Source: a virus
Lineage: Duplodnaviria; Heunggongvirae; Uroviricota; Caudoviricetes
DNA length: 64,000 nucleotides
Virus record (IMG/VR): IMGVR_UViG_2579778606_000002
Span: 27,981-91,980 of that record
Strand: one strand, 5' to 3'
Position 1 is the first letter of the stretch. Each line of letters starts with the position of its first letter. Both the position numbers and the translations under genes were made by a program. Of the stretch, positions 1,065-44,345 are shown one piece after another. The notes beneath the pieces are model-generated. The model was given only the letters and a program-made list of their open reading frames with translations, was not told the origin of the DNA and searched no databases.

Positions 1065-1756
1065 CCGATCACCTGGAATTGTCCCATCCTTGGGTGATAC
1101 CAGCGTTTTCCTCGGTGTTCAGCCTCCGACATCATCAGGGTAAAGGCATTCATGAAGGGAGATAAGGCCACAATAGTACGACGCGACAATACCCCCTCTG
1201 GCGTCAAAAACTCATGCGTATCTGTGGGAATCCGGTAAGCGTTGACCAGGTTACGGCATTTGGCTTCAGTCAGGCCACATTTCGCCGCTAACTGGCGATA
1301 GCCAATGTAACCTTCTGGCATGTTGCCCTTCTTGATCTGCTCGACGGTTTCAGCAACCTGGCTAACCTTTGACTCAACAACATGAAGCCGCTTTTGCTGC
1401 TGAACTGCATTTGCAGCCATTGCAGCGATCATCTCTATTTCGGTCAACGGCTGGCGTACTTGTTCTTCCAGTTCGCGCCAGCGGTCCACCAGCCGGGCGG
1501 TGAATTCGGGAGAGAGCTGCGCAACGACGATAATGCTATCGCGCTTGCCTTGCTCGCCTTCGAAGACGTAAGCCTCAACACTACGTCGTAGTCCTAAGTT
1601 ATTGATTTTTTCGAAAACCTCAATTTGAGGACGAACAATAACGCCACCTTTGTCTAATGTCTCAATAGTGCGTTTCACATTGTCATGACGTTTTCCCACC
1701 AGCTCCGCGATCTCAATGCTGGTCATTGATGGCTTTTCGAGAATGCAGATATCCAT
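1049..1756 (-). CDS. Rha-family phage regulatory protein (antirepressor-like), truncated relative to paralog
   Basis: N-terminus MTSIEIAELVGKRHDNVKRTIE and block FEGEQGKRDSIIVVAQLSPEFTARLVDRWRELE typical of Phage_pRha; paralog at 53648..54589. Confidence 0.65.
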   Translation of the reverse strand: MDICILEKPSMTSIEIAELVGKRHDNVKRTIETLDKGGVIVRPQIEVFEKINNLGLRRSVEAYVFEGEQGKRDSIIVVAQLSPEFTARLVDRWRELEEQVRQPLTEIEMIAAMAANAVQQQKRLHVVESKVSQVAETVEQIKKGNMPEGYIGYRQLAAKCGLTEAKCRNLVNAYRIPTDTHEFLTPEGVLSRRTIVALSPFMNAFTLMMSEAEHRGKRWYHPRMGQFQVIGWGGE

Positions 1757-1980
1757 CAGTGAGACTCCGCAATGCCGGGATTGGTAATATTGCGATACCA
1801 GGGATTGGTGTTTGGTTGTGGGGAAGTAGAGAAACGACCAGTGAGAACGCCATACTGATCAGGGATCAGAGAACGGGCTTCTTTTTCAGTTGCGGCAATT
1901 GCGAAGTGATCGCAGTGTTTTTGCAGGGAGTGAAAACGCCAGATGAATTCTGGACGTGAGCAAGGATTGGCATTAACCAT
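1756..1980 (-). CDS. icd: Icd-like small protein (host cell division inhibitor-like) preceding Rha gene
   Basis: 74-aa ORF, stop/start overlap with downstream Rha gene; motif EFIWRF..EKEARS shared with paralog 54589..54804; arrangement as P1 immI. Confidence 0.45.
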   Translation of the reverse strand: MVNANPCSRPEFIWRFHSLQKHCDHFAIAATEKEARSLIPDQYGVLTGRFSTSPQPNTNPWYRNITNPGIAESH

Positions 1981-2014
1981 AGTTACGGCCTCACTAACAG
2001 GTTTAACAACCTGC

Positions 2015-2200
2015 TACCCGCTGCTAAACAGGTGGCAGGACGTGACGGGGTTAGCAGACTGGCGTTAGTGAAACCAGCAGGCCGAAGCCTCCCCATCACG
2101 CCCCACCATAATTTGGGCGTAACGCGGTTTTACGGACACAAAAATACCGCAATATCGGATATCTGCGGTTGTCCGCACTAACATTCAGGCTGCTAAACCC
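2015..2200 (-). ncRNA. Candidate c4-like antisense RNA / translational control region of icd-rha copy 1
   Basis: Direct boxes CTGCTAAAC near 2021 and 2190 with inverted copy GTTAGCAG near 2050, about 45 nt upstream of icd start; analogy to P1 c4. Confidence 0.25.
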
Positions 2201-2308
2201 GGTCGCAGAATTTGCTACGACGGCATGAATATAAGCCTGAACATTAGAAAGATCAACAGAATTTTTATCAGATGCTGTTTTTTAGTGACGATATAAATCA
2301 TACATTCT

Positions 2309-2340
2309 TGATTAGAAACATCAATTTAATTTTCTAACAT
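2309..2340. promoter_or_regulatory. 32-bp operator-like palindrome (TGATTAGAAA..TTTCTAACAT)
   Basis: Member of a recurring inverted-repeat family seen at about six loci; lies upstream of icd-rha copy 1. Confidence 0.5.
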
Positions 2341-2396
2341 ACATTTTCGAGCGATGAAATTCCCGCCGCACGGTTATTGTACAGTCAATCGCAACA

Positions 2397-3359
2397 TCAT
2401 CCCCGAAAGCCCTCCGGAATTGACCAGTCTTCCCGGTCAAATTCAGACCGATAGCCACGCTGTTTCATCAGGTCAAAGGCTTCACCAATGGTTGCACACC
2501 CCTGGGAGCCAGAATAATCCATTGAGAAATCCAGGGCACTGGATTGTTTAGGCTTATTCACTGCTGTAGCGGCACTACGTATCCATGCAAATTTTTTTGC
2601 CAGCTTTTCAGCGGTACGATACAGAGCCTGCCGTTTTGCGTGCCCCTCATCTGAACGACGCTTTGCAGCTCTCGCTTTTGCCGCCGCCAGGCAGTGGTTG
2701 GTATGTTCTTCCCTGATTACTGGTTTTTTATCCAGACCCCCATTATCCGCTTGAGAACTATCTGCTGGTGAAGCCTTTGGCTGAACCGCGCATGATCTTT
2801 CTCTTCTTTTGGCTATAGAGTGACTCTTATTTTCTATTGGCTGTTCATTTTGAACATGGGGGGACTTGTTCAATTTGAACAGGGGGTTCCCAGTTTCAAA
2901 AAAATAACGAACCTTTGAAATCAACTGCTTAACCAGTTTTGTGGCGTTGGCAAATTTGATGCCCTGCTTACTCCCTATCTCCATTGCTACATGAATGAAG
3001 TGGAGAAATTGTGTTGTAAACCGGTACACGTTACACACCTGAGCATTGTTATTCGCTACCTGATGCTGCTTAACAAGCATTCCGCACTTCGTCGCTTCGG
3101 CAAATGCCCGGCGCACAGTAGAAATACTGCGTCCTGTAATCTCGGACATATCCGCATATGAGCGACGGATCATGTATTCATCGGTAGCTCCTGCCAGGTT
3201 GGCGAACTCGGCAATAATGGCGCTATGTGAAGGGGAAAGAAAACCGCTATGACGAGCAAAAAAACTCAACTGATGACCTTTGATTTTTTTGTGGTATTCA
3301 GTGTTGTTTTTATACTCAGAAGTGTTGAAAGTAACTGAAACTGAATTTAAAATACTCAC
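2397..3359 (-). CDS. Hypothetical protein with predicted HTH (ITGRSISTVRRAFAEATKCGML); possible replication or regulatory protein
   Basis: 320-aa ORF (GTG start in track) flanked by operator-like palindromes; no confident family assignment. Confidence 0.5.
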   Translation of the reverse strand: MSILNSVSVTFNTSEYKNNTEYHKKIKGHQLSFFARHSGFLSPSHSAIIAEFANLAGATDEYMIRRSYADMSEITGRSISTVRRAFAEATKCGMLVKQHQVANNNAQVCNVYRFTTQFLHFIHVAMEIGSKQGIKFANATKLVKQLISKVRYFFETGNPLFKLNKSPHVQNEQPIENKSHSIAKRRERSCAVQPKASPADSSQADNGGLDKKPVIREEHTNHCLAAAKARAAKRRSDEGHAKRQALYRTAEKLAKKFAWIRSAATAVNKPKQSSALDFSMDYSGSQGCATIGEAFDLMKQRGYRSEFDREDWSIPEGFRG

Positions 3360-3420
3360 CAGATAGTTCCGTGAAAAATCTATCTACCGTATAAATCTAT
3401 GCCAGTGGATTTATACACCC

Positions 3421-3453
3421 AAAAGCCGCTACTCAGCGGCTTTTGCTTTTTTT
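3421..3453. terminator. Bidirectional rho-independent terminator (aaaa-GCCGCT..AGCGGC-ttttgcttttttt)
   Basis: Stem 3424-3441 with A-tract upstream and long T-tract downstream, seen directly. Confidence 0.6.
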
Positions 3454-3530
3454 GGCAGTCGCTACCGGAGCAGTGACCGCGATCCTACTCGATCACGTGC
3501 CGTCGGATCAACAGTGTATAAAAACACACT

Positions 3531-3562
3531 GTGTTAGAAAATTAAGCTAGCTTTTAGCTCAC
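3531..3562. promoter_or_regulatory. Operator-like half-site GTGTTAGAAAA plus degenerate second arm
   Basis: Same half-site as the 32-bp palindromes; overlaps 3' end of 3559..4557 and lies upstream of 2397..3359. Confidence 0.35.
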
Positions 3563-4557
3563 ATCCTCTTAGACACAAAGATCAGCGGAGTCACCGTCTT
3601 GTTCTCTTTCACCGGTATTTCTTGTTGTTTATTGGCTGATATTGGCAGACCATAAGTGGCATTAGCCCCCAGGGATTCAAGCATCGCTGCGACAATGCGT
3701 GCATCATCCTCTGACTGCATACGGCAGAGCGCCCGGCGCTGTTCTGCGCTGATAAAAACAGGCATTTCCTGGATAGCATCACGCAAAATACGGCGGCATT
3801 TCTTCGCGTTCTCCCCCTGGCTTTCCATCATCGCGGCCTGGTCGCGTAGTTTGTCGCGAAGCTGCATATTTTCCACTTCAAGATGTATCAGTTCCGACTC
3901 CAGAACTTCACGTTGTGCTGATTCGAATATGGCTTGCTGACTCTTCATTGCTGAAAAGTGGTGAACCAGATCCGTAGCAGCATTATCGGTAAAACCTTGT
4001 TCGATAAGTGCCGCATGAATCGCCGCGTCGCGTTCTTCTGCTGATTCAAGCATCAGGCTTTTCTTGTCGAGGCTGATATAGTTAGGCACAGTTACGTAAT
4101 CAAAACCGTGAAAAGACTTTACCAGGGATACAGAGTAATCTGGACCAGATGTAGCCCATGACCAACCACCTGCGCCAGAATTAATCATACCCTGAACAAT
4201 ACGTCCGGTGTCCGTATCCAGTATTTCCTGTGTATGGGTAACAATGCCGTTGTCGTCAATTGAAATGTCGATAGTCCTGTTTGACGGCACGTTCTCCAAT
4301 ACAACAGGCTTCCCATCTACCATCACAACAGAGACTTCCGGCAAGTCCAGGCTTTTCGTTTTGTTATAGTGCATCGCCCGGCGACCATGACCGTAATAAC
4401 CATACATCTCACCCAGTGCGATACGCTCTTTTGTTTCTGGCGAGTTGAATGTGTCTCGTACCGACTGGATAACGTAATTGCGATTGTTCTGAGGTGTGTG
4501 TTTGCGGATTTTCTCTACCAGGGAGAAGCGATCCGTAACGGTATTCAGTGATTGCAT
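3559..4557 (-). CDS. Putative head processing/scaffold protein (position of P1 pro)
   Basis: 332-aa ORF directly downstream of portal-like gene; coiled-coil-rich C-terminal half; function by position only. Confidence 0.3.
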   Translation of the reverse strand: MQSLNTVTDRFSLVEKIRKHTPQNNRNYVIQSVRDTFNSPETKERIALGEMYGYYGHGRRAMHYNKTKSLDLPEVSVVMVDGKPVVLENVPSNRTIDISIDDNGIVTHTQEILDTDTGRIVQGMINSGAGGWSWATSGPDYSVSLVKSFHGFDYVTVPNYISLDKKSLMLESAEERDAAIHAALIEQGFTDNAATDLVHHFSAMKSQQAIFESAQREVLESELIHLEVENMQLRDKLRDQAAMMESQGENAKKCRRILRDAIQEMPVFISAEQRRALCRMQSEDDARIVAAMLESLGANATYGLPISANKQQEIPVKENKTVTPLIFVSKRM

Positions 4558-4570
4558 TATTTCCCTCCGG

Positions 4571-6256
4571 TTAATTATTGCTCATCACAAATTTTGCAAA
4601 GTTGATTAATTGTTCTTGCGTCCAGTTTTCCGGATCGTCACCGGACGACAACGGCGCGGATTCGTACATACCATGCTCGTTGTTTTGCTCTGATTCATTC
4701 GCTTTAAACTCTTTGATCATTACGTTGAGAGTGTCATCGTCGATACAAAGCTGTTCGGTGAACAGATAACGCATAAACGCGTCGCTACCCGCCAGTTTCG
4801 GGTTGTTCTGGATCTGGTCCATTATTTGCGAGATGACAGCTACGAAGTTGGCGCGCGCATCCAGCTCTCGGTTTTCCTCTTCCTGGATAGCTGTGTTCAT
4901 TGAGTTGAATTGCACGTCATAAGGACGGTTTTTTTCGGTGTAAACCTTCCCGTATTTATAAGCGAGGTGAATGTCATGAAGCCGATAAATAGTCCGCTGG
5001 GCGGCCTGTCTGATCCAGTTCGCGCGTAAGGCGGCCTGGATAGCTGTTTGCTGCCAACCGCCTTCTCCAAGTCCACCACTCATCTGATCAGCCCAGCCAA
5101 GCATTGTTGCGTCAATACCGAGGCTTGCCGCGAGCTGTCGGAGATGAAACATAACGTCTTCGATACCACTGATATCTGCGGGTATAGATTGCGTATCAAT
5201 GGTGATCCCGTTCTTCCCATCCCCCATGACGGGTATCAGATGGTTAAGTACAGATGGGAGAGCATTAGAATTAATCGACCGTTGCGCTACGAGGTCGCTA
5301 TGACGCTTCAGTGCCTGGCTGACCCCGCGCGTATAATTCGCCGCATTTACCGGATCTATCGTGTTCGTTGTGAGTGCAATCAGGCGATCAATTTTTGCAG
5401 CGTTGTTTCGCGTTGCTTTCAGCGCAGCAAGCGCGGCACATAAATTCAGGTAGGGTTCATAACTGTATTCAAGAAATGACGTACCGTAGTTCTGCGTCTC
5501 CATTAACGGCTTGTCCTGCTGTTCACTAAGCAAGGAATAGCCTTTAGTGCCGTAAGTTACTGGCATTACATTATGCTGAGGCGTCCAGTACGGGTTTTTC
5601 ATGGAAACCAGATTCCATGGTTCGGTTATAACTCTGCGCAAAGTATGCGTATCCAGAATGTAATCACCGCTGAATCCGACAAGTTGGCTACCGCGATAAA
5701 ACTCCTGAACGAAATGAGGGAGCGTGTAATAGCTCGACTCAATTCCAGTTATCCCCTTCCCTTGCTCTGCATATGGACGGATATACGACACACCGAAAAT
5801 AGCCATGATCATGGCCCACGATGGCAGGCCATCATTAATCATTGAGCTTAAATCAGCGGTCAATTCCTCACATCGACTTACAGCCTCCTTATCTGCCCCA
5901 TTTTTCGGAGCGAGAATAAATGCGAGGCCTGTTTTTTTTGATGGAGCCAGAGAATGCGCAATGTGAATGTTTAATGCTGTGGAGACAGTCGGACTTTTCG
6001 CCATCGTCTCCAGTATGTTGTATTTTTGCAGGCGGTCGCCGGGCAGTTCTGCCGAAATTGATACTGTATCTGCCGCGCTTGTCATGCCATCGCTATTGCC
6101 ACCCAGGATACCCGGACGTAAAGCAGACAGACCAGAACGCGCAACGACACTATGACCGCTTGTAAAAACGACCGGATCAGCAGGCGTGACATCGCCACTG
6201 TTGAAGGCTTTCTTCAATGCCGACAGAAAGCCTTTGTTTTTGTCTTTCGTTGCCAT
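4571..6256 (-). CDS. Putative portal protein (position of P1 prt)
   Basis: 561-aa ORF of portal-typical size upstream of head-processing candidate; no motif-level confirmation possible. Confidence 0.35.
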   Translation of the reverse strand: MATKDKNKGFLSALKKAFNSGDVTPADPVVFTSGHSVVARSGLSALRPGILGGNSDGMTSAADTVSISAELPGDRLQKYNILETMAKSPTVSTALNIHIAHSLAPSKKTGLAFILAPKNGADKEAVSRCEELTADLSSMINDGLPSWAMIMAIFGVSYIRPYAEQGKGITGIESSYYTLPHFVQEFYRGSQLVGFSGDYILDTHTLRRVITEPWNLVSMKNPYWTPQHNVMPVTYGTKGYSLLSEQQDKPLMETQNYGTSFLEYSYEPYLNLCAALAALKATRNNAAKIDRLIALTTNTIDPVNAANYTRGVSQALKRHSDLVAQRSINSNALPSVLNHLIPVMGDGKNGITIDTQSIPADISGIEDVMFHLRQLAASLGIDATMLGWADQMSGGLGEGGWQQTAIQAALRANWIRQAAQRTIYRLHDIHLAYKYGKVYTEKNRPYDVQFNSMNTAIQEEENRELDARANFVAVISQIMDQIQNNPKLAGSDAFMRYLFTEQLCIDDDTLNVMIKEFKANESEQNNEHGMYESAPLSSGDDPENWTQEQLINFAKFVMSNN

Positions 6257-41671: not shown

Positions 41672-41679
41672 CGCCGGAA

Positions 41680-41785
41680 TAACACCGTTTTGGTTCCATG
41701 TGGTATTTTGAGGCTACTTTGATGCCTTTTTAGTACCAGAATAGTGTTATTAGTGTACCGTAATGGTGTTTGTTTGGTGTTATAA
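41680..41785. repeat. Centromere-like repeats downstream of partition cassette
   Basis: AATAACACCG, TGGTTCC, TAGTACCAGAA and GGTGTT motifs related to the upstream array. Confidence 0.4.
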
Positions 41786-41806
41786 AAGCCCCATGTGGGG
41801 CTTTTC
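41784..41806. terminator. Bidirectional terminator (aaaa-GCCCC-atgt-GGGGC-ttttc)
   Basis: Hairpin between the convergent partition-adaptor and dam-like genes with A-tract and T-tract. Confidence 0.6.
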
Positions 41807-42841
41807 TTAATTAAGCGTGGCTATAATGTCGTTAGCTATCATTCGCGTTGATGCTTTACAGGATACAGAGCGACGGGATGGCATAGGATACACCTTGAAG
41901 CCATTGCCAACGTAAAGTTCGCGAATGTTAGGCGCACCACTGTTTGTTATCACAATTTTCGCTCCGCGTCTGTGGGCATCCACCAGCAGTGACACCAGCC
42001 GTTGTTGATCTTCAAACCTAAAGCTATGCCCTGAGTAATTTGTAAATCCGGTAGTGTCGGGCAATGGTTCATAGGGGGGATCGCAGAAAATCACATCATC
42101 ATTCCCGGCAGCCTCAATTACTCCAGCAAAATCGCCGGACACAAATTCCGAATACTTTGAAATATCGTCAGCCAGGAACGCCTCCATTTCCGCGAGAGGG
42201 AAGTGGGGTGATTTCTGCTTTCCATATCCGACGTTGAACTCTCCTTTACGGTTATAGCGAGTGACGCCATTAAAACAATGACGATTGAGATACAGGAACG
42301 CCGCTGCATGGTGAAGGGAATCATAAGCACCATTGTTGAATGCATTGCGAACATTCAAAAATGCATCAGCAGAGTTGTAATCCTGAAAAAAACGATATGC
42401 CAGTGTGATAAGAGAATGCCCTTCACGCTGCAATGTCTGATAGAAGTTAATCAGGTCATTATTGATATCGTTCAGCAGGTTGCTTTTAAATCCGGCATTA
42501 GTGAAAACAGCGCCACCTCCAACGAAAGGTTCTATCAACCGTTTTCCGTGGGGCAGGTGTTCGAAGATAATGGGCAGTGCAGAAAATTTGCCGCCGACCC
42601 ACTTAAAGACTGGGCGATCAAATTCGTCCTCCGAGCGAATACGTCGCATATGGCTGATAGTGGCTTCCGCCGCAGGACGATGATTGTCGCTATAAGAAAT
42701 AAATTTAGCACCAATATCAGCCACGGATTCCCTCCTTATTTGCTTCAAATACAGCTCTTGCAAAACCGTAAGGTGTCGCGCTACGAAAATTCGCTCTTTC
42801 AGGTCCTGGCGGTGCCTTGTGTATTCGGTTGTCTGGATCAC
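41807..42841 (-). CDS. dam: Dam-like N6-adenine DNA methyltransferase (true start probably internal, near 42649)
   Basis: FKWVGGK and DPPY motifs, alignable to E. coli Dam; track start overlaps upstream ORF. Confidence 0.75.
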   Translation of the reverse strand: MIQTTEYTRHRQDLKERIFVARHLTVLQELYLKQIRRESVADIGAKFISYSDNHRPAAEATISHMRRIRSEDEFDRPVFKWVGGKFSALPIIFEHLPHGKRLIEPFVGGGAVFTNAGFKSNLLNDINNDLINFYQTLQREGHSLITLAYRFFQDYNSADAFLNVRNAFNNGAYDSLHHAAAFLYLNRHCFNGVTRYNRKGEFNVGYGKQKSPHFPLAEMEAFLADDISKYSEFVSGDFAGVIEAAGNDDVIFCDPPYEPLPDTTGFTNYSGHSFRFEDQQRLVSLLVDAHRRGAKIVITNSGAPNIRELYVGNGFKVYPMPSRRSVSCKASTRMIANDIIATLN

Positions 42842-43523
42842 CTAACGACTCGTCGATTCGCGGAGTTGGCATGATGAATCCTTGTCCGCTCCACAGGCAT
42901 GTTTTTTTGGTGTAATTGTCTTCCTTGCAATATGCAGTGAAGTGATAAGGATGGAATATGTGATCAGGTTTACGCCAGAATGTCGATATTTGGCTGACCG
43001 GGTTTTCAATCATGTACGGGCAACCAATCATCTTTGCAATGTCGTAACACTGCCAGACAACCTGCATTGCTTTGAACTGGAAAACCGGATCTTTTTTCGC
43101 TTTATCTGCGAACCAGCGTGCGCCAGATACAGCCAGGTCAGTACACGGAGGGAAACCGGCTAAAAATACAACTCTGTGCAAATTTTTCCGAAGGAAATTG
43201 TAGACCTCATCACTGTCAATAATTGCGCTGATACGTGTGAGTACAGCACCTGACTCCATCAATTGGCTGCCGGACTCCTGGTGTTGCGGATCGACAATGA
43301 CTGCATCAATGCCGTGTTCCAGCCAGGGGGAAACCATATTCCCTGTATAATCACAAAGACTCACCGCCAGCGGTCGGTTATTAATGCTCTGCTTCACCGC
43401 CAATGGCCTCCACCAGCGAGCTAAACATCGCGGATAATTCGCTTGTGAACAGAATGAAGTCAGCATCAAATCGCTGGGCAACATCTTCACGGTCGATGTC
43501 ATCGTTCTGGTCATAGAGATCAT
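42717..43523 (-). CDS. Divergent C5-cytosine methyltransferase-like protein (start uncertain)
   Basis: GFPPC (motif IV-like), MIENPV (ENV motif) and a C-terminal motif-X-like segment; overlaps rdgC and dam ORFs. Confidence 0.45.
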   Translation of the reverse strand: MISMTRTMTSTVKMLPSDLMLTSFCSQANYPRCLARWWRPLAVKQSINNRPLAVSLCDYTGNMVSPWLEHGIDAVIVDPQHQESGSQLMESGAVLTRISAIIDSDEVYNFLRKNLHRVVFLAGFPPCTDLAVSGARWFADKAKKDPVFQFKAMQVVWQCYDIAKMIGCPYMIENPVSQISTFWRKPDHIFHPYHFTAYCKEDNYTKKTCLWSGQGFIMPTPRIDESLGDPDNRIHKAPPGPERANFRSATPYGFARAVFEANKEGIRG

Positions 43524-44286
43524 CGCAAAACGTCAGTGCTTTGATGCTCATGTCATCGTTTAACCTGAAGGTCGCGCGGTCCTGCCAGTTGATTGCAACT
43601 GTTGTTGCAACTTTTCCGGCTTCAATATGAGTCATTATTTCCTCTGACTGTAGGTCTACTTTCTTGCAACGAACTGCGCCGCCGTCATCGAACAGAGATT
43701 TCAATATGGCTTCTTCGCCTGCTTTAAAGCCTTGAGGAAATGTTGACTTGAACCATTCGGTCATAGTCATTTCGAGCGGTTCTATCGGCGTGAATGGAAT
43801 CACTGGCAGGCTGCCAAGTGATTTACGTAAGAGCGCCAGCATTTCTTCTGCTTTTCTGGCGCTGGAAGCTTCTACGAAGACCAGATAGTTGTCGCGATCA
43901 ATAAGGATTCGCGACAATGATTTGCGAGTGAATGCGCGAGGCAACAAAGAGTGGAGAACTTCATCCTTCAGGGTGTTTTTTTCCGACTTCTTCAGCTTAC
44001 GAGATTGCTCATTTTCGAGCTTTTCCACTTTTTTCTGCACTTCCTCCTTAATGACATGAGAGGGCAGGAGCTTAATTTCTCGCTGTTGCTGGAGAAGTAG
44101 AAAACCGTGGTATTCATGGATCAGGTTGTCAGCCAGAACCGGCACCCATCCGACTTTTGCCATTTCTTGTGATGCGCATGGAGTGAATGTGAATTGGCTT
44201 AAGGCATCACTAACGGTGGTTGAGTCCAGTTTTATTTCGCGGGCAAGGCGATAGACGTATATGTTTTTAAAGGCGACTAATCTCAT
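43381..44286 (-). CDS. rdgC: RdgC homolog (recombination-associated protein; P1 hrdC-like)
   Basis: Alignable to E. coli RdgC along its length (LRKSLGSLPV, HIEAGKV, FCDDLYDQNDDIDREDVAQRFDADFIL); ATG at 44286. Confidence 0.8.
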   Translation of the reverse strand: MRLVAFKNIYVYRLAREIKLDSTTVSDALSQFTFTPCASQEMAKVGWVPVLADNLIHEYHGFLLLQQQREIKLLPSHVIKEEVQKKVEKLENEQSRKLKKSEKNTLKDEVLHSLLPRAFTRKSLSRILIDRDNYLVFVEASSARKAEEMLALLRKSLGSLPVIPFTPIEPLEMTMTEWFKSTFPQGFKAGEEAILKSLFDDGGAVRCKKVDLQSEEIMTHIEAGKVATTVAINWQDRATFRLNDDMSIKALTFCDDLYDQNDDIDREDVAQRFDADFILFTSELSAMFSSLVEAIGGEAEH

Positions 44287-44299
44287 TTTTAGCAAAACT

Positions 44300-44331
44300 A
44301 TGTTAGAAAACAAAACTCAATTATCTAACAC
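44300..44331. promoter_or_regulatory. 32-bp operator-like palindrome (ATGTTAGAAAAC..TATCTAACAC)
   Basis: Same inverted-repeat family, about 14 nt upstream of the rdgC start. Confidence 0.5.
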
Positions 44332-44345
44332 AGTTTTGCATTTTG

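Follow-up and report, generated by a model that had tools for sequence, protein, structure and literature searches.

The rdgC, X and dam genes of the D6-like phage-plasmid analyzed here are very probably organized as a three-gene unit that lies on the minus strand of the 64,000-nucleotide stretch of viral DNA under study (the window) and is closed by a terminator hairpin, with X and dam being independent but translationally coupled genes. They are separate genes of known kinds and do not constitute a broken or frameshifted fusion. The first-pass annotation of the region had weighed three options: a fusion with a frameshift, a programmed shift and a pair of coupled genes. The last is supported, while the first two are argued against by the lack of similarity between X and Dmt, by the AAGGAGG-N6-GTG that dam possesses as its own and by the closed frames found in relatives. 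The rdgC–X–dam arrangement is already annotated in phage D6; the finding is an ordinary one, and nothing in it is surprising to a specialist.

Boundaries and signals of the rdgC–X–dam genes

The longest possible open reading frames downstream of rdgC occupy positions 42717-43523 (268 aa) and 41807-42841 (344 aa), are located in different frames and share 125 nt, just as the first-pass annotation had reported. This overlap, as well as a 143-nt overlap with rdgC, appears because each frame is read from its first possible start codon. The 126 nt of the X frame upstream of GTG 43397 (43398..43523, minus strand) are a spurious 5′ extension and represent the 3′ end of rdgC in another frame: the extension is interrupted by a stop codon in phage D6, in a related locus, L009, the frame opens only one codon ahead of the GTG, and 14 out of 19 substitutions relative to D6 affect third positions of rdgC codons. 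Likewise, the 117 nt upstream of GTG 42724 (42725..42841, minus strand), which extend the dam frame, are the 3′-terminal part of X in its +1 frame. Protein identity to D6 in this segment is 31% in the Dam frame versus 79% in the X frame, 26 out of 36 substitutions affect third positions of X codons, and the Dam frame is closed by stop codons both in L009 and in a more distant element, L007. Since both extensions are stop-interrupted in relatives, the coding overlaps are 8 nt for X and dam and 17 nt for rdgC and X, the same values as in the annotation of phage D6. Thus, X does overlap the end of rdgC, as had been proposed, but by 17 nt rather than through a coding upstream segment, and the 125 nt shared by the longest frames contain just 8 nt of coding overlap.

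The first gene of the unit, the hrdC homologue rdgC (43381..44286, minus strand), matches Pfam family PF04381 with an E value of 1e-100, which bears out its earlier identification upstream of the methyltransferase frames, and has the same 906-nt length as orf65 of D6. The preceding gene is homologous to P1 baseplate gene 5, and the likely rdgC start, ATG 44286 (301 aa), is located 59 nt past its stop codon. Gene X (42717..43397, minus strand) extends from GTG 43397 to the TGA codon at 42717-42719 and encodes a 226-aa protein. A Shine-Dalgarno sequence, GGAGG (43407..43411, minus strand), is found 9 nt 5′ of this GTG, within the last codons of rdgC, and the GGAGG-N9-GTG layout is also present in L009. 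The third gene, dam (41807..42724, minus strand), starts from GTG 42724 and encodes a 305-aa protein; it is preceded, at a distance of 6 nt, by AAGGAGG (42731..42737, minus strand), located within the last codons of X. PGAP placed the dam start at the same position in plasmid pEC361_3, which is 99% identical to the window.

The 8-nt overlap (GTGGCTGA) takes in the start codon of dam and the stop codon of X. The junction, including the Shine-Dalgarno sequence (AAGGGGG in D6 and AAAGGGG in L009), the start codon and the 8-nt overlap, is kept in D6 and L009, with ATG replacing GTG. In L007, the order of the three genes is retained but the junctions differ: a 150-nt gap comes first and is followed by a 19-nt overlap. 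In the window, the Shine-Dalgarno sequence and the start codon of each downstream gene are embedded in the final codons of the preceding one, a layout that is usual for termination-reinitiation or for tightly co-ordinated translation, and this geometry suggests that translation of X and dam is coupled.

A hairpin, AAAAGCCCC-ACAU-GGGGCUUUU (41784..41805, minus strand), starts 2 nt past the dam stop codon. Its calculated RNA folding energy is −14.6 kcal/mol (z = −5.1), and it is likely an intrinsic terminator that ends the unit; a consensus terminator scan did not list it. A consensus promoter scan retrieved a single coding-strand site, which lies within the baseplate gene upstream (44551-44524), and gave fewer promoter-like sites than shuffled sequence did. 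When the whole window was searched for signs of C1 control of the kind seen at P1 Pdmt, using the P1 C1-operator consensus and allowing up to three mismatches, no matches were returned.

Family, predicted fold and relatives of the X protein

The upstream frame had been described as C5-methyltransferase-like, with a PC and an ENV motif. The PC motif (FPPCT) and the C5 fold, as predicted, hold up, whereas the second motif reads ENP (IENPV) and not ENV. The motifs of X comprise LCDYTG (motif I-like), FPPCT with the putative catalytic Cys85, IENPV with Glu131, YTKKT and RSATPYGFARAV; Cys85 and Glu131 correspond to the Pro-Cys nucleophile of motif IV and to the motif VI glutamate in its ENP variant. 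Among 38 diverse family members, FPPCT, IENPV and RSATPYGFARAVF are invariant, and so are 66 positions besides the catalytic cysteine and glutamate. Motif I is atypical when compared to FxGxG and reads LFDGSG in the Drexlerviridae relatives; C15, D16 and G19 of X are invariant. A shorter X starting at ATG 43337 (206 aa), as placed by PGAP, was rejected, since it lacks these three residues. In RefSeq plasmids that are 99% identical to the window, X is labelled “hypothetical protein” and is given a start codon that cuts off the N-terminal LCDYTG.

X matches the phrog_757 profile with an E value of 3e-78 over residues 43-265 of the 268-aa frame, which is the 226-aa protein. There are 7679 homologues, mostly ca. 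215-255 aa long among the matches listed and starting just ahead of LCDxTG, and a tblastn search found the family in 1571 phage records. X is a full-length member that ends at the normal C-terminus of the family. The listed members are nearly all stand-alone proteins, and most family members do not adjoin a Dam gene. The AF2 model of X (pLDDT 86.9) has a C5-methyltransferase fold, and its top Foldseek matches are mostly DNMT3A/B, with a probability of 1.00. No Pfam family, PF00145 included, matched X at E ≤ 1, no NCBIfam match was found, and searches of PDB sequences with either the single sequence or the family profile retrieved no methyltransferase, only chance matches to ornithine decarboxylase (E ~0.4). 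About 40-50 residues of X are available for target recognition. Homology and the predicted fold identify X as a minimal C5-cytosine DNA methyltransferase of a small phage Dcm-like family, with a very short putative target-recognition region. This assignment is based on the PHROG profile, the conserved motifs, the predicted fold and one preprint describing a 39%-identical relative.

Strain MG1655 carries a dcm gene of its own. Assays of the Dcm of phage K42 were run in this strain and showed that the enzyme makes 5mC, as seen by LC-MS on msDNA, and triggers retron Ec86 (Eco1); residues C82, E128, K175 and K176 were mutated together, not singly, and 5mC was lost in the catalytic mutant (bioRxiv 10.1101/2023.08.16.553469). 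The CCWGG specificity of K42 Dcm was assumed from that of E. coli Dcm and tested only via mutation of the msDNA site, and a DNMT3-like predicted fold was reported for this protein too (bioRxiv 10.1101/2023.08.16.553469).

The Dcm of phage ExeQuayColi (Warwickvirus; L012:1495-2205, 711 bp) possesses C82, E128, K175 and K176, the same residues that were mutated in K42 Dcm. X is 39% identical to the ExeQuayColi protein and keeps all four residues as C85, E131, K164 and K165. Like the Dcm proteins of the K42/KarlJaspers type (phrog_757), X is encoded by a stand-alone gene of similar size and has a DNMT3-like predicted fold, and the elements FPPCTDLA, PYMIENP, WRKPD, Y.KKTCLW and RS.TP.GFA.AV are common to both. 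By analogy with the experimentally studied relative, X would be expected to produce 5mC. X differs from these proteins in being only 38-39% identical to them, in having LCDYTG instead of LFDGSG as motif I and in being encoded by a temperate phage-plasmid, where its gene is coupled to dam. In addition, a 14-residue segment in the putative recognition region of the studied Drexlerviridae enzymes is missing from X, and the specificity of X may therefore differ from theirs.

One can propose that X, though it has a C5-methyltransferase fold, is not a plain DNA m5C methyltransferase but transfers another group, acts on another substrate or is a non-catalytic partner of Dam. The missing PF00145 match, the atypical motif I, the very small target-recognition region and the fact that specificity within the family is not firmly established all fit such a proposal. 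Yet invariance of the catalytic residues and of 66 further positions in 38 members speaks for a conserved enzymatic activity, a member 39% identical to X raises DNA 5mC in a manner that depends on the catalytic residues, and obligate partnership with Dam is unlikely, given that most family members are encoded away from a Dam gene. We consider this proposal unlikely and the assignment of X as a cytosine methyltransferase preferable.

Exchange of the segment between rdgC and the Dam core

The downstream frame had been called a clear Dam homologue, and profile searches fully agree: the protein matches PF02086 with 182 bits (cut-off 22; E = 2e-53) and TIGR00571 with 231 bits (cut-off 114.85), and carries FKWVGGK, the AdoMet-binding FxWxGGK element, and the catalytic DPPY within FCDPPYEP. 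Its score against the E. coli Dam equivalog NF008152, 220 bits, is under the cut-off of 441, and the protein is therefore a member of the Dam family of D12-class N6-adenine methyltransferases and not an orthologue of E. coli Dam. P1 Dmt is annotated as methylating GATC (P1 record; PMC12707154). The window Dam is 69% identical to residues 471-753 of P1 Dmt, the Dam half, a level of similarity at which N6-adenine methylation of GATC by Dam would be expected.

The parallel with P1 that had been drawn earlier is valid at the level of gene order. P1 carries hrdC followed by dmt, whose 754-aa bifunctional product consists of a PF00145 C5 domain and then a Dam domain, so that in both elements a cytosine-methyltransferase module directly follows the rdgC homologue and precedes a Dam module. 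The linker in front of FKW(V/A)GGK in Dmt is related to the N-terminal tail of the window Dam; more generally, the first ca. 35 residues of Dam share homology with the linker that joins the two domains in fused Dmt proteins. Unlike the single Dmt polypeptide with its canonical PF00145 domain of ca. 460 aa, the window cytosine methyltransferase is a separate 226-aa gene product of another family, without detectable similarity to the P1 domain. When X was compared by BLASTP with P1 Dmt and with the fused proteins encoded at loci L005 and L006, no match rose above noise. An hhalign comparison between the X family and the N-terminal domain of Dmt gave a probability of 0.3%, a weak result, as the alignment included only three similar sequences. 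X is not a piece of a Dmt-type protein, contrary to what the first-pass annotation had considered. Correspondingly, of the 779 positions of the phrog_116 profile, which describes one polypeptide, the Dam frame matches just 504-777, while the window has two frames with stop and start codons of their own.

In phage D6 (MF356679), orf65, orf64 and orf63 encode RdgC, a putative DNA-cytosine methylase and a DNA-adenine methylase in the same order and on the same strand as in the window, and, again as in the window, the unit adjoins P1 gene 5/6-like baseplate and tail genes. The X proteins are 82-84% identical, and nucleotide identity across the region is 75%. Apart from the different dam start codon, D6 is distinguished by a diverged N-terminal tail of Dam and by glnS just beyond dam, a gene that the window element does not have. 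Among matching plasmid records, 89 out of 113 align over at least 80% of the region, and two plasmids from independent assemblies share 99% identity there. An indel at 42700-42850 is therefore not expected.

Other plasmids contain a different gene in the same place. In pB2C_96 (691 aa) and pPSS-10_3 (854 aa), a fused C5-Dam gene fills the interval from rdgC to the terminator that X and dam fill in the window. In these genes, a P1-type PF00145 domain is in frame with Dam, in contrast to the X gene, stop codon and restart of the window. The Dam core of the fused proteins of D6-like plasmids is closely related to the window Dam, and the fused genes of pPSS-10_3 and of an E. marmotae plasmid (L004) have the same first codons as X (MKQSIN...). 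The L004 plasmid harbors a 1.45-kb canonical C5-methyltransferase domain and Dam in this slot, between flanks that are ca. 95-99% identical to the window; its dmt-type fused gene is frameshifted and falls into two overlapping frames. In a BLASTN comparison with L004, the window aligned up to position 42629 and again from position 43380. Since sister plasmids have a canonical C5-Dam fusion in the same slot, the segment in between (42630..43379, minus strand), which includes X from approximately codon 6 to the stop codon together with the dam start region and linker, is a swapped module.

Could the two frames, nevertheless, be the remains of one fused bifunctional Dmt-type gene, disrupted either through a frameshift mutation or through an error in sequencing? 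A fused gene does occupy this slot in P1 and in the sister plasmids, the gene of L004 is indeed split in just this way, and the N-terminus of the window Dam resembles the linker of the fused form. Nevertheless, X has no sequence similarity to the Dmt C5 domain and has the full length of its family, in which nearly all listed members are stand-alone proteins; the two-gene layout, with a Shine-Dalgarno sequence and a start for dam, is preserved in D6 at 75% nucleotide identity as well as in L009; and the many plasmid records that share the region, among them the two nearly identical independent assemblies, argue against an error. We regard a broken fusion as highly improbable. The same very low probability is assigned to a programmed +1 frameshift in which ribosomes at the stop codon of X would read GGC-UGA as GGC-[U]-GAU and so yield some X-Dam fusion mimicking P1 Dmt. 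Shine-Dalgarno-like sites stimulate the +1 shift in prfB. In the window, the dam frame is +1 to that of X, such that the two would be joined if the ribosome skipped one base at the stop codon, and a strong Shine-Dalgarno-like AAGGAGG is located upstream, but it lies 8 nt from the P-site codon versus ca. 3 nt in prfB, there is no slippery codon (GGC to GCU in the window and GAG to AGU in D6 and L009 cannot re-pair), the site sequence differs between the window and D6/L009, the Dam-frame extension is under no constraint and is closed up to the start codon in L009 and in L007 with its different overlap, and ordinary reinitiation fully explains the layout.

With X and dam taken as two coupled genes, the comparison shows the slot that separates rdgC from the catalytic core of Dam to behave as a swappable module. 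In P1 and several D6-like plasmids, it contains a canonical PF00145 C5 domain fused to Dam, and in the lineage of the window and in D6, an unrelated small X with its own stop codon, followed by a new Dam start; Dam retains the former interdomain linker as its N-terminal tail.

Probable DNA modification by the phage-plasmid

Together, X and Dam would provide the phage-plasmid with m5C and m6A marks of its own, and the element probably writes both on its own DNA. By analogy with P1, these marks would serve in protection from restriction and in functions that depend on GATC, e.g., packaging. Retron Ec86 is known to be triggered by a relative of X, and carriage of X could affect host range either way.

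A bolder extension can also be envisaged, in which the slot is a hot-swappable cytosine-modification specificity cassette with defined breakpoints (42629/42630 and 43379/43380), lineages alternate between a canonical C5-Dam fusion and a minimal Dcm-like enzyme, and X and Dam perhaps form a non-covalent bifunctional complex through the linker tail, or X makes a mark, or has a specificity, other than CCWGG 5mC. We consider it a speculative and rather improbable scenario; if such a complex or such a mark were real, it would change which restriction systems and retrons are escaped or triggered.

The practical value of the analysis is mainly in correct annotation: neither of the long overlaps should be described as a frameshift or pseudogene, and X can be named a Dcm-like C5 DNA methyltransferase in place of “hypothetical protein”. 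Comparison with the sister plasmids presents a clean case in which, through replacement of a module, a two-domain fused enzyme gives way to a pair of coupled genes.

Boundaries and junctions of the rdgC, X and dam genes

Three minus-strand genes were delimited as longest ORFs: rdgC (43381-44313; PF04381, E = 1e-100), the gene that follows it, here called X (42717-43523; PHROG family 757 'DNA methyltransferase', E = 3e-78), and dam (41807-42841). The last encodes a Dam homologue, as the first-pass annotation had stated (PF02086, E = 2e-53; TIGR00571, 231 bits with a cut-off of 115; FKWVGGK and DPPY in the translation). Read in this way, rdgC and X share 143 nt, and X and Dam share 125 nt, the latter figure being the one originally reported. 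However, GTG 42724 is the sole candidate start codon out of five in the Dam frame with a ribosome-binding site (AAGGAGG, 6 nt upstream), and in the X frame GTG 43397 is preceded by GGAGG 9 nt upstream. From these starts, the overlaps of X with dam and of rdgC with X, both noticed earlier, do exist but shrink to 8 nt (GTGGCTGA) and 17 nt, respectively.

Four independent lines of sequence comparison concur in indicating that the 125-nt and 143-nt overlaps are artefacts of longest-ORF choice. First, the annotation of Escherichia phage D6 has identical boundaries (orf64, 226 aa, and orf63, 301 aa, with overlaps of 17 and 8 nt), and the PGAP start of Dam in a 99% identical plasmid is the equivalent of GTG 42724. 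Second, the supposed X extension is interrupted by a stop codon in D6; in a relative whose X is 78% identical (L009), the X and Dam frames are both closed by stops, one codon ahead of the GTG and of the ATG, respectively, and in a more distant one (L007) the Dam frame first opens at 'VLSPILKWAGGK'. Third, of the 36 differences from D6 across the 117 nt preceding GTG 42724, 26 fall at codon position 3 of the X frame, and protein identity to D6 is 79% in the X frame versus 31% in the Dam frame; likewise, 14 of the 19 differences across the 126 nt before GTG 43397 are at rdgC-frame position 3. Fourth, X-family proteins have few residues ahead of an invariant LCDxTG motif. In plasmid pEC361_3 (99% identical), PGAP starts X at an internal ATG, yielding a 206-aa 'hypothetical protein' (2518-3138 of its locus, equivalent to 42717-43337 of the window); this start was rejected in favor of GTG 43397 because it loses the family-invariant LCDYTG.

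The X/dam junction has a common design in the window, D6 and L009, with a Shine-Dalgarno sequence within the last X codons and an 8-nt start/stop overlap; the dam start codon is GTG in the window and ATG in the other two. RNA folding predicts a strong hairpin 3' of the dam stop codon (-14.6 kcal/mol, z = -5.1). The best reading is that rdgC, X and dam would form one unit of translationally coupled genes, as one of the earlier proposals had it for X and dam, each of these two having its own Shine-Dalgarno sequence and start; the coupling we infer from junction geometry. Upstream of rdgC, a 59-nt intergenic gap (44287-44345, minus strand), preceded by a homologue of P1 baseplate gene 5, includes the inverted repeat TGTTAGA-N16-TCTAACA; no clear Shine-Dalgarno sequence precedes the rdgC ATG. 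A promoter-like TTTACA-16-TATAGT lies at 44551-44524, within the baseplate gene, and the P1 C1-operator consensus does not occur anywhere in the window.

Identity and family of X

No Pfam or NCBIfam profile matched X, which has 7679 homologues at E < 1e-5. Nearly every listed match is a stand-alone protein some 215-255 aa long, and a methyltransferase-family Pfam domain is absent from all those listed. A tblastn search detects the family in 1571 phage records, with T1-like, rV5-like, Webervirus and Dhillonvirus phages represented. In an alignment of 38 diverse family members, 68 columns are invariant, among them C15/D16/G19 (LCDxTG), DPQH, FPPCT (Cys85), ENPV (Glu131), WR.PD, Y.K.T.LW and RSATP.GF; the ENV motif previously ascribed to X thus reads ENP. 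An AlphaFold2 model computed from this alignment was confident (pLDDT 86.9, pTM 0.86), and its best PDB matches by Foldseek were mostly DNMT3A and DNMT3B (probability 1.00). The model and motifs argue that X is C5-methyltransferase-like, as first proposed.

A protein from a 1053-nt ENA metagenome contig (305 aa) is 99% identical to full-length X and matches the RdgC Pfam family as well, apparently as an rdgC C-terminus fused to X. An indel within the 17-nt overlap of this short contig, or faulty gene calling there, is the likely cause.

Strain MG1655 possesses its own dcm. It was the host in a study of phage K42, a KarlJaspers-type Warwickvirus, whose 711-bp dcm encodes an enzyme that increases 5mC in retron Ec86 msDNA, as measured by LC-MS, and triggers the retron, both effects being lost in a C82A/E128A/K175A/K176A mutant; the CCWGG target was assumed from E. 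coli Dcm and probed only via msDNA site mutation (bioRxiv 10.1101/2023.08.16.553469). The 711-bp homologue of Warwickvirus ExeQuayColi has Cys 82, Glu 128 and Lys-Lys 175/176, exactly matching the mutated positions. Since X aligns with it over the full length (39% identity) and keeps all four residues (C85, E131, K164 and K165), X can be assigned, by sequence, to the retron-triggering Dcm-like family, one member of which has been studied. The Drexlerviridae enzymes differ in having a 14-residue segment in the putative recognition region that X lacks, and X may thus recognize another site.

In the unrelated Dhillonvirus GeorgBuechner, an X-family Dcm-like gene (1474-2184 of its locus) is followed on the same strand, ~1.1 kb downstream, by a Dam-like gene starting at 3280; in ExeQuayColi, no Dam gene was found within 1.5 kb of the Dcm-like gene. 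A small Dcm-like enzyme and a Dam may thus be paired outside phage-plasmids as well.

Split and fused methyltransferases

In P1, hrdC is followed by dmt, in agreement with the first-pass annotation, and Dmt consists of a PF00145 C5 domain and then a PF02086 Dam domain, the same order as X and Dam in the window. Alignment to Dmt held for one half only: the window Dam matches residues 471-753 at 69% identity, whereas X has no BLASTP similarity to the N-terminal half. Profile-profile comparison of the X family with the Dmt N-terminal domain gave a probability of 0.3%, a weak negative because the template alignment is shallow.

Two frameshift explanations had been offered. A programmed +1 shift at GGC-UGA would put X and Dam into one frame, yet we consider it very improbable, as the junction codons are unable to re-pair afterwards, the Shine-Dalgarno spacing is unsuited to prfB-type stimulation, the junction sequence varies between relatives and the Dam frame is closed in them right up to the start codon. 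A decayed fusion has just as slight a chance and is in practice excluded: X is full-length and its family is not that of the Dmt C5 domain, 75%-diverged lineages retain the two-gene layout, and alignments cover at least 80% of the region in 89 of the 113 plasmid records that match it.

The D6-like plasmids pB2C_96 (691 aa) and pPSS-10_3 (854 aa) have PF00145-Dam fusions in the same slot. An E. marmotae plasmid (NZ_CP099353) carries the same kind of fused gene split across two overlapping frames (2960-4021 and 1608-2993 of its locus), which is the type of frameshifted fusion envisaged earlier for the window. No CDS is listed at 1608-4021, and against the intact pPSS-10_3 gene roughly 277 nt are absent or cannot be aligned; the split copy is a true pseudogene or else reflects misassembly. 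The fused genes of pPSS-10_3 and the E. marmotae plasmid share their first codons with X (MKQSIN...).

The BLASTN alignment of the window with the E. marmotae plasmid runs at 95% identity up to 42629 and resumes at 99% from 43380, with unrelated sequence in between. These limits mark out 42630-43379 as a replaced module that comprises X with its stop codon, plus a Shine-Dalgarno sequence and start codon for Dam, both new. In the split Dam, the first ~35 residues (...ISHMRRIRSEDEFDRPVFKW in the window, ...ISYMRTIRTPDEYERPIFKW in D6) are similar to the linker that joins the two domains in the fused forms (...ITYTRKLRTPDEYERPIFKW). This fits conversion of a fused enzyme into two genes by module exchange, a direction that we infer.

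The element and its relatives

Two non-mobilizable plasmids of E. coli (90-94 kb) are 99% identical to the window across this region, 113 plasmid records match in all, and the closest phage, D6 (75% nucleotide identity), has the same gene order; by these matches, the element is a D6-like phage-plasmid. In D6 (2278-3939 of its locus) and pB2C_96, glnS (glutaminyl-tRNA synthetase, orf62) lies between a 95-aa ORF and dam; at this position the window has only ~135 nt of intergenic DNA (41672-41806) with the probable dam terminator hairpin. The spot next to dam is thus a site of cargo gain or loss. An 85-kb Logan contig (SRR15244401; L007) retains the rdgC-X-Dam order (2939-5559 of its locus) with different junctions: a 150-nt gap precedes X, which has 254 aa with an insertion of ~28 residues between the Y.KKTCLW and PD.RIH motifs, and the 270-aa Dam, which lacks the linker tail, overlaps X by 19 nt.

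X and dam are thus two ordinary, already annotated gene kinds with a standard coupled junction, X bearing a hypothetical label and a truncated start in RefSeq. Only two points are of mild interest: the exchange of a module in comparison with the fused P1-type enzymes, and the placement of X in the retron-triggering Dcm-like family.
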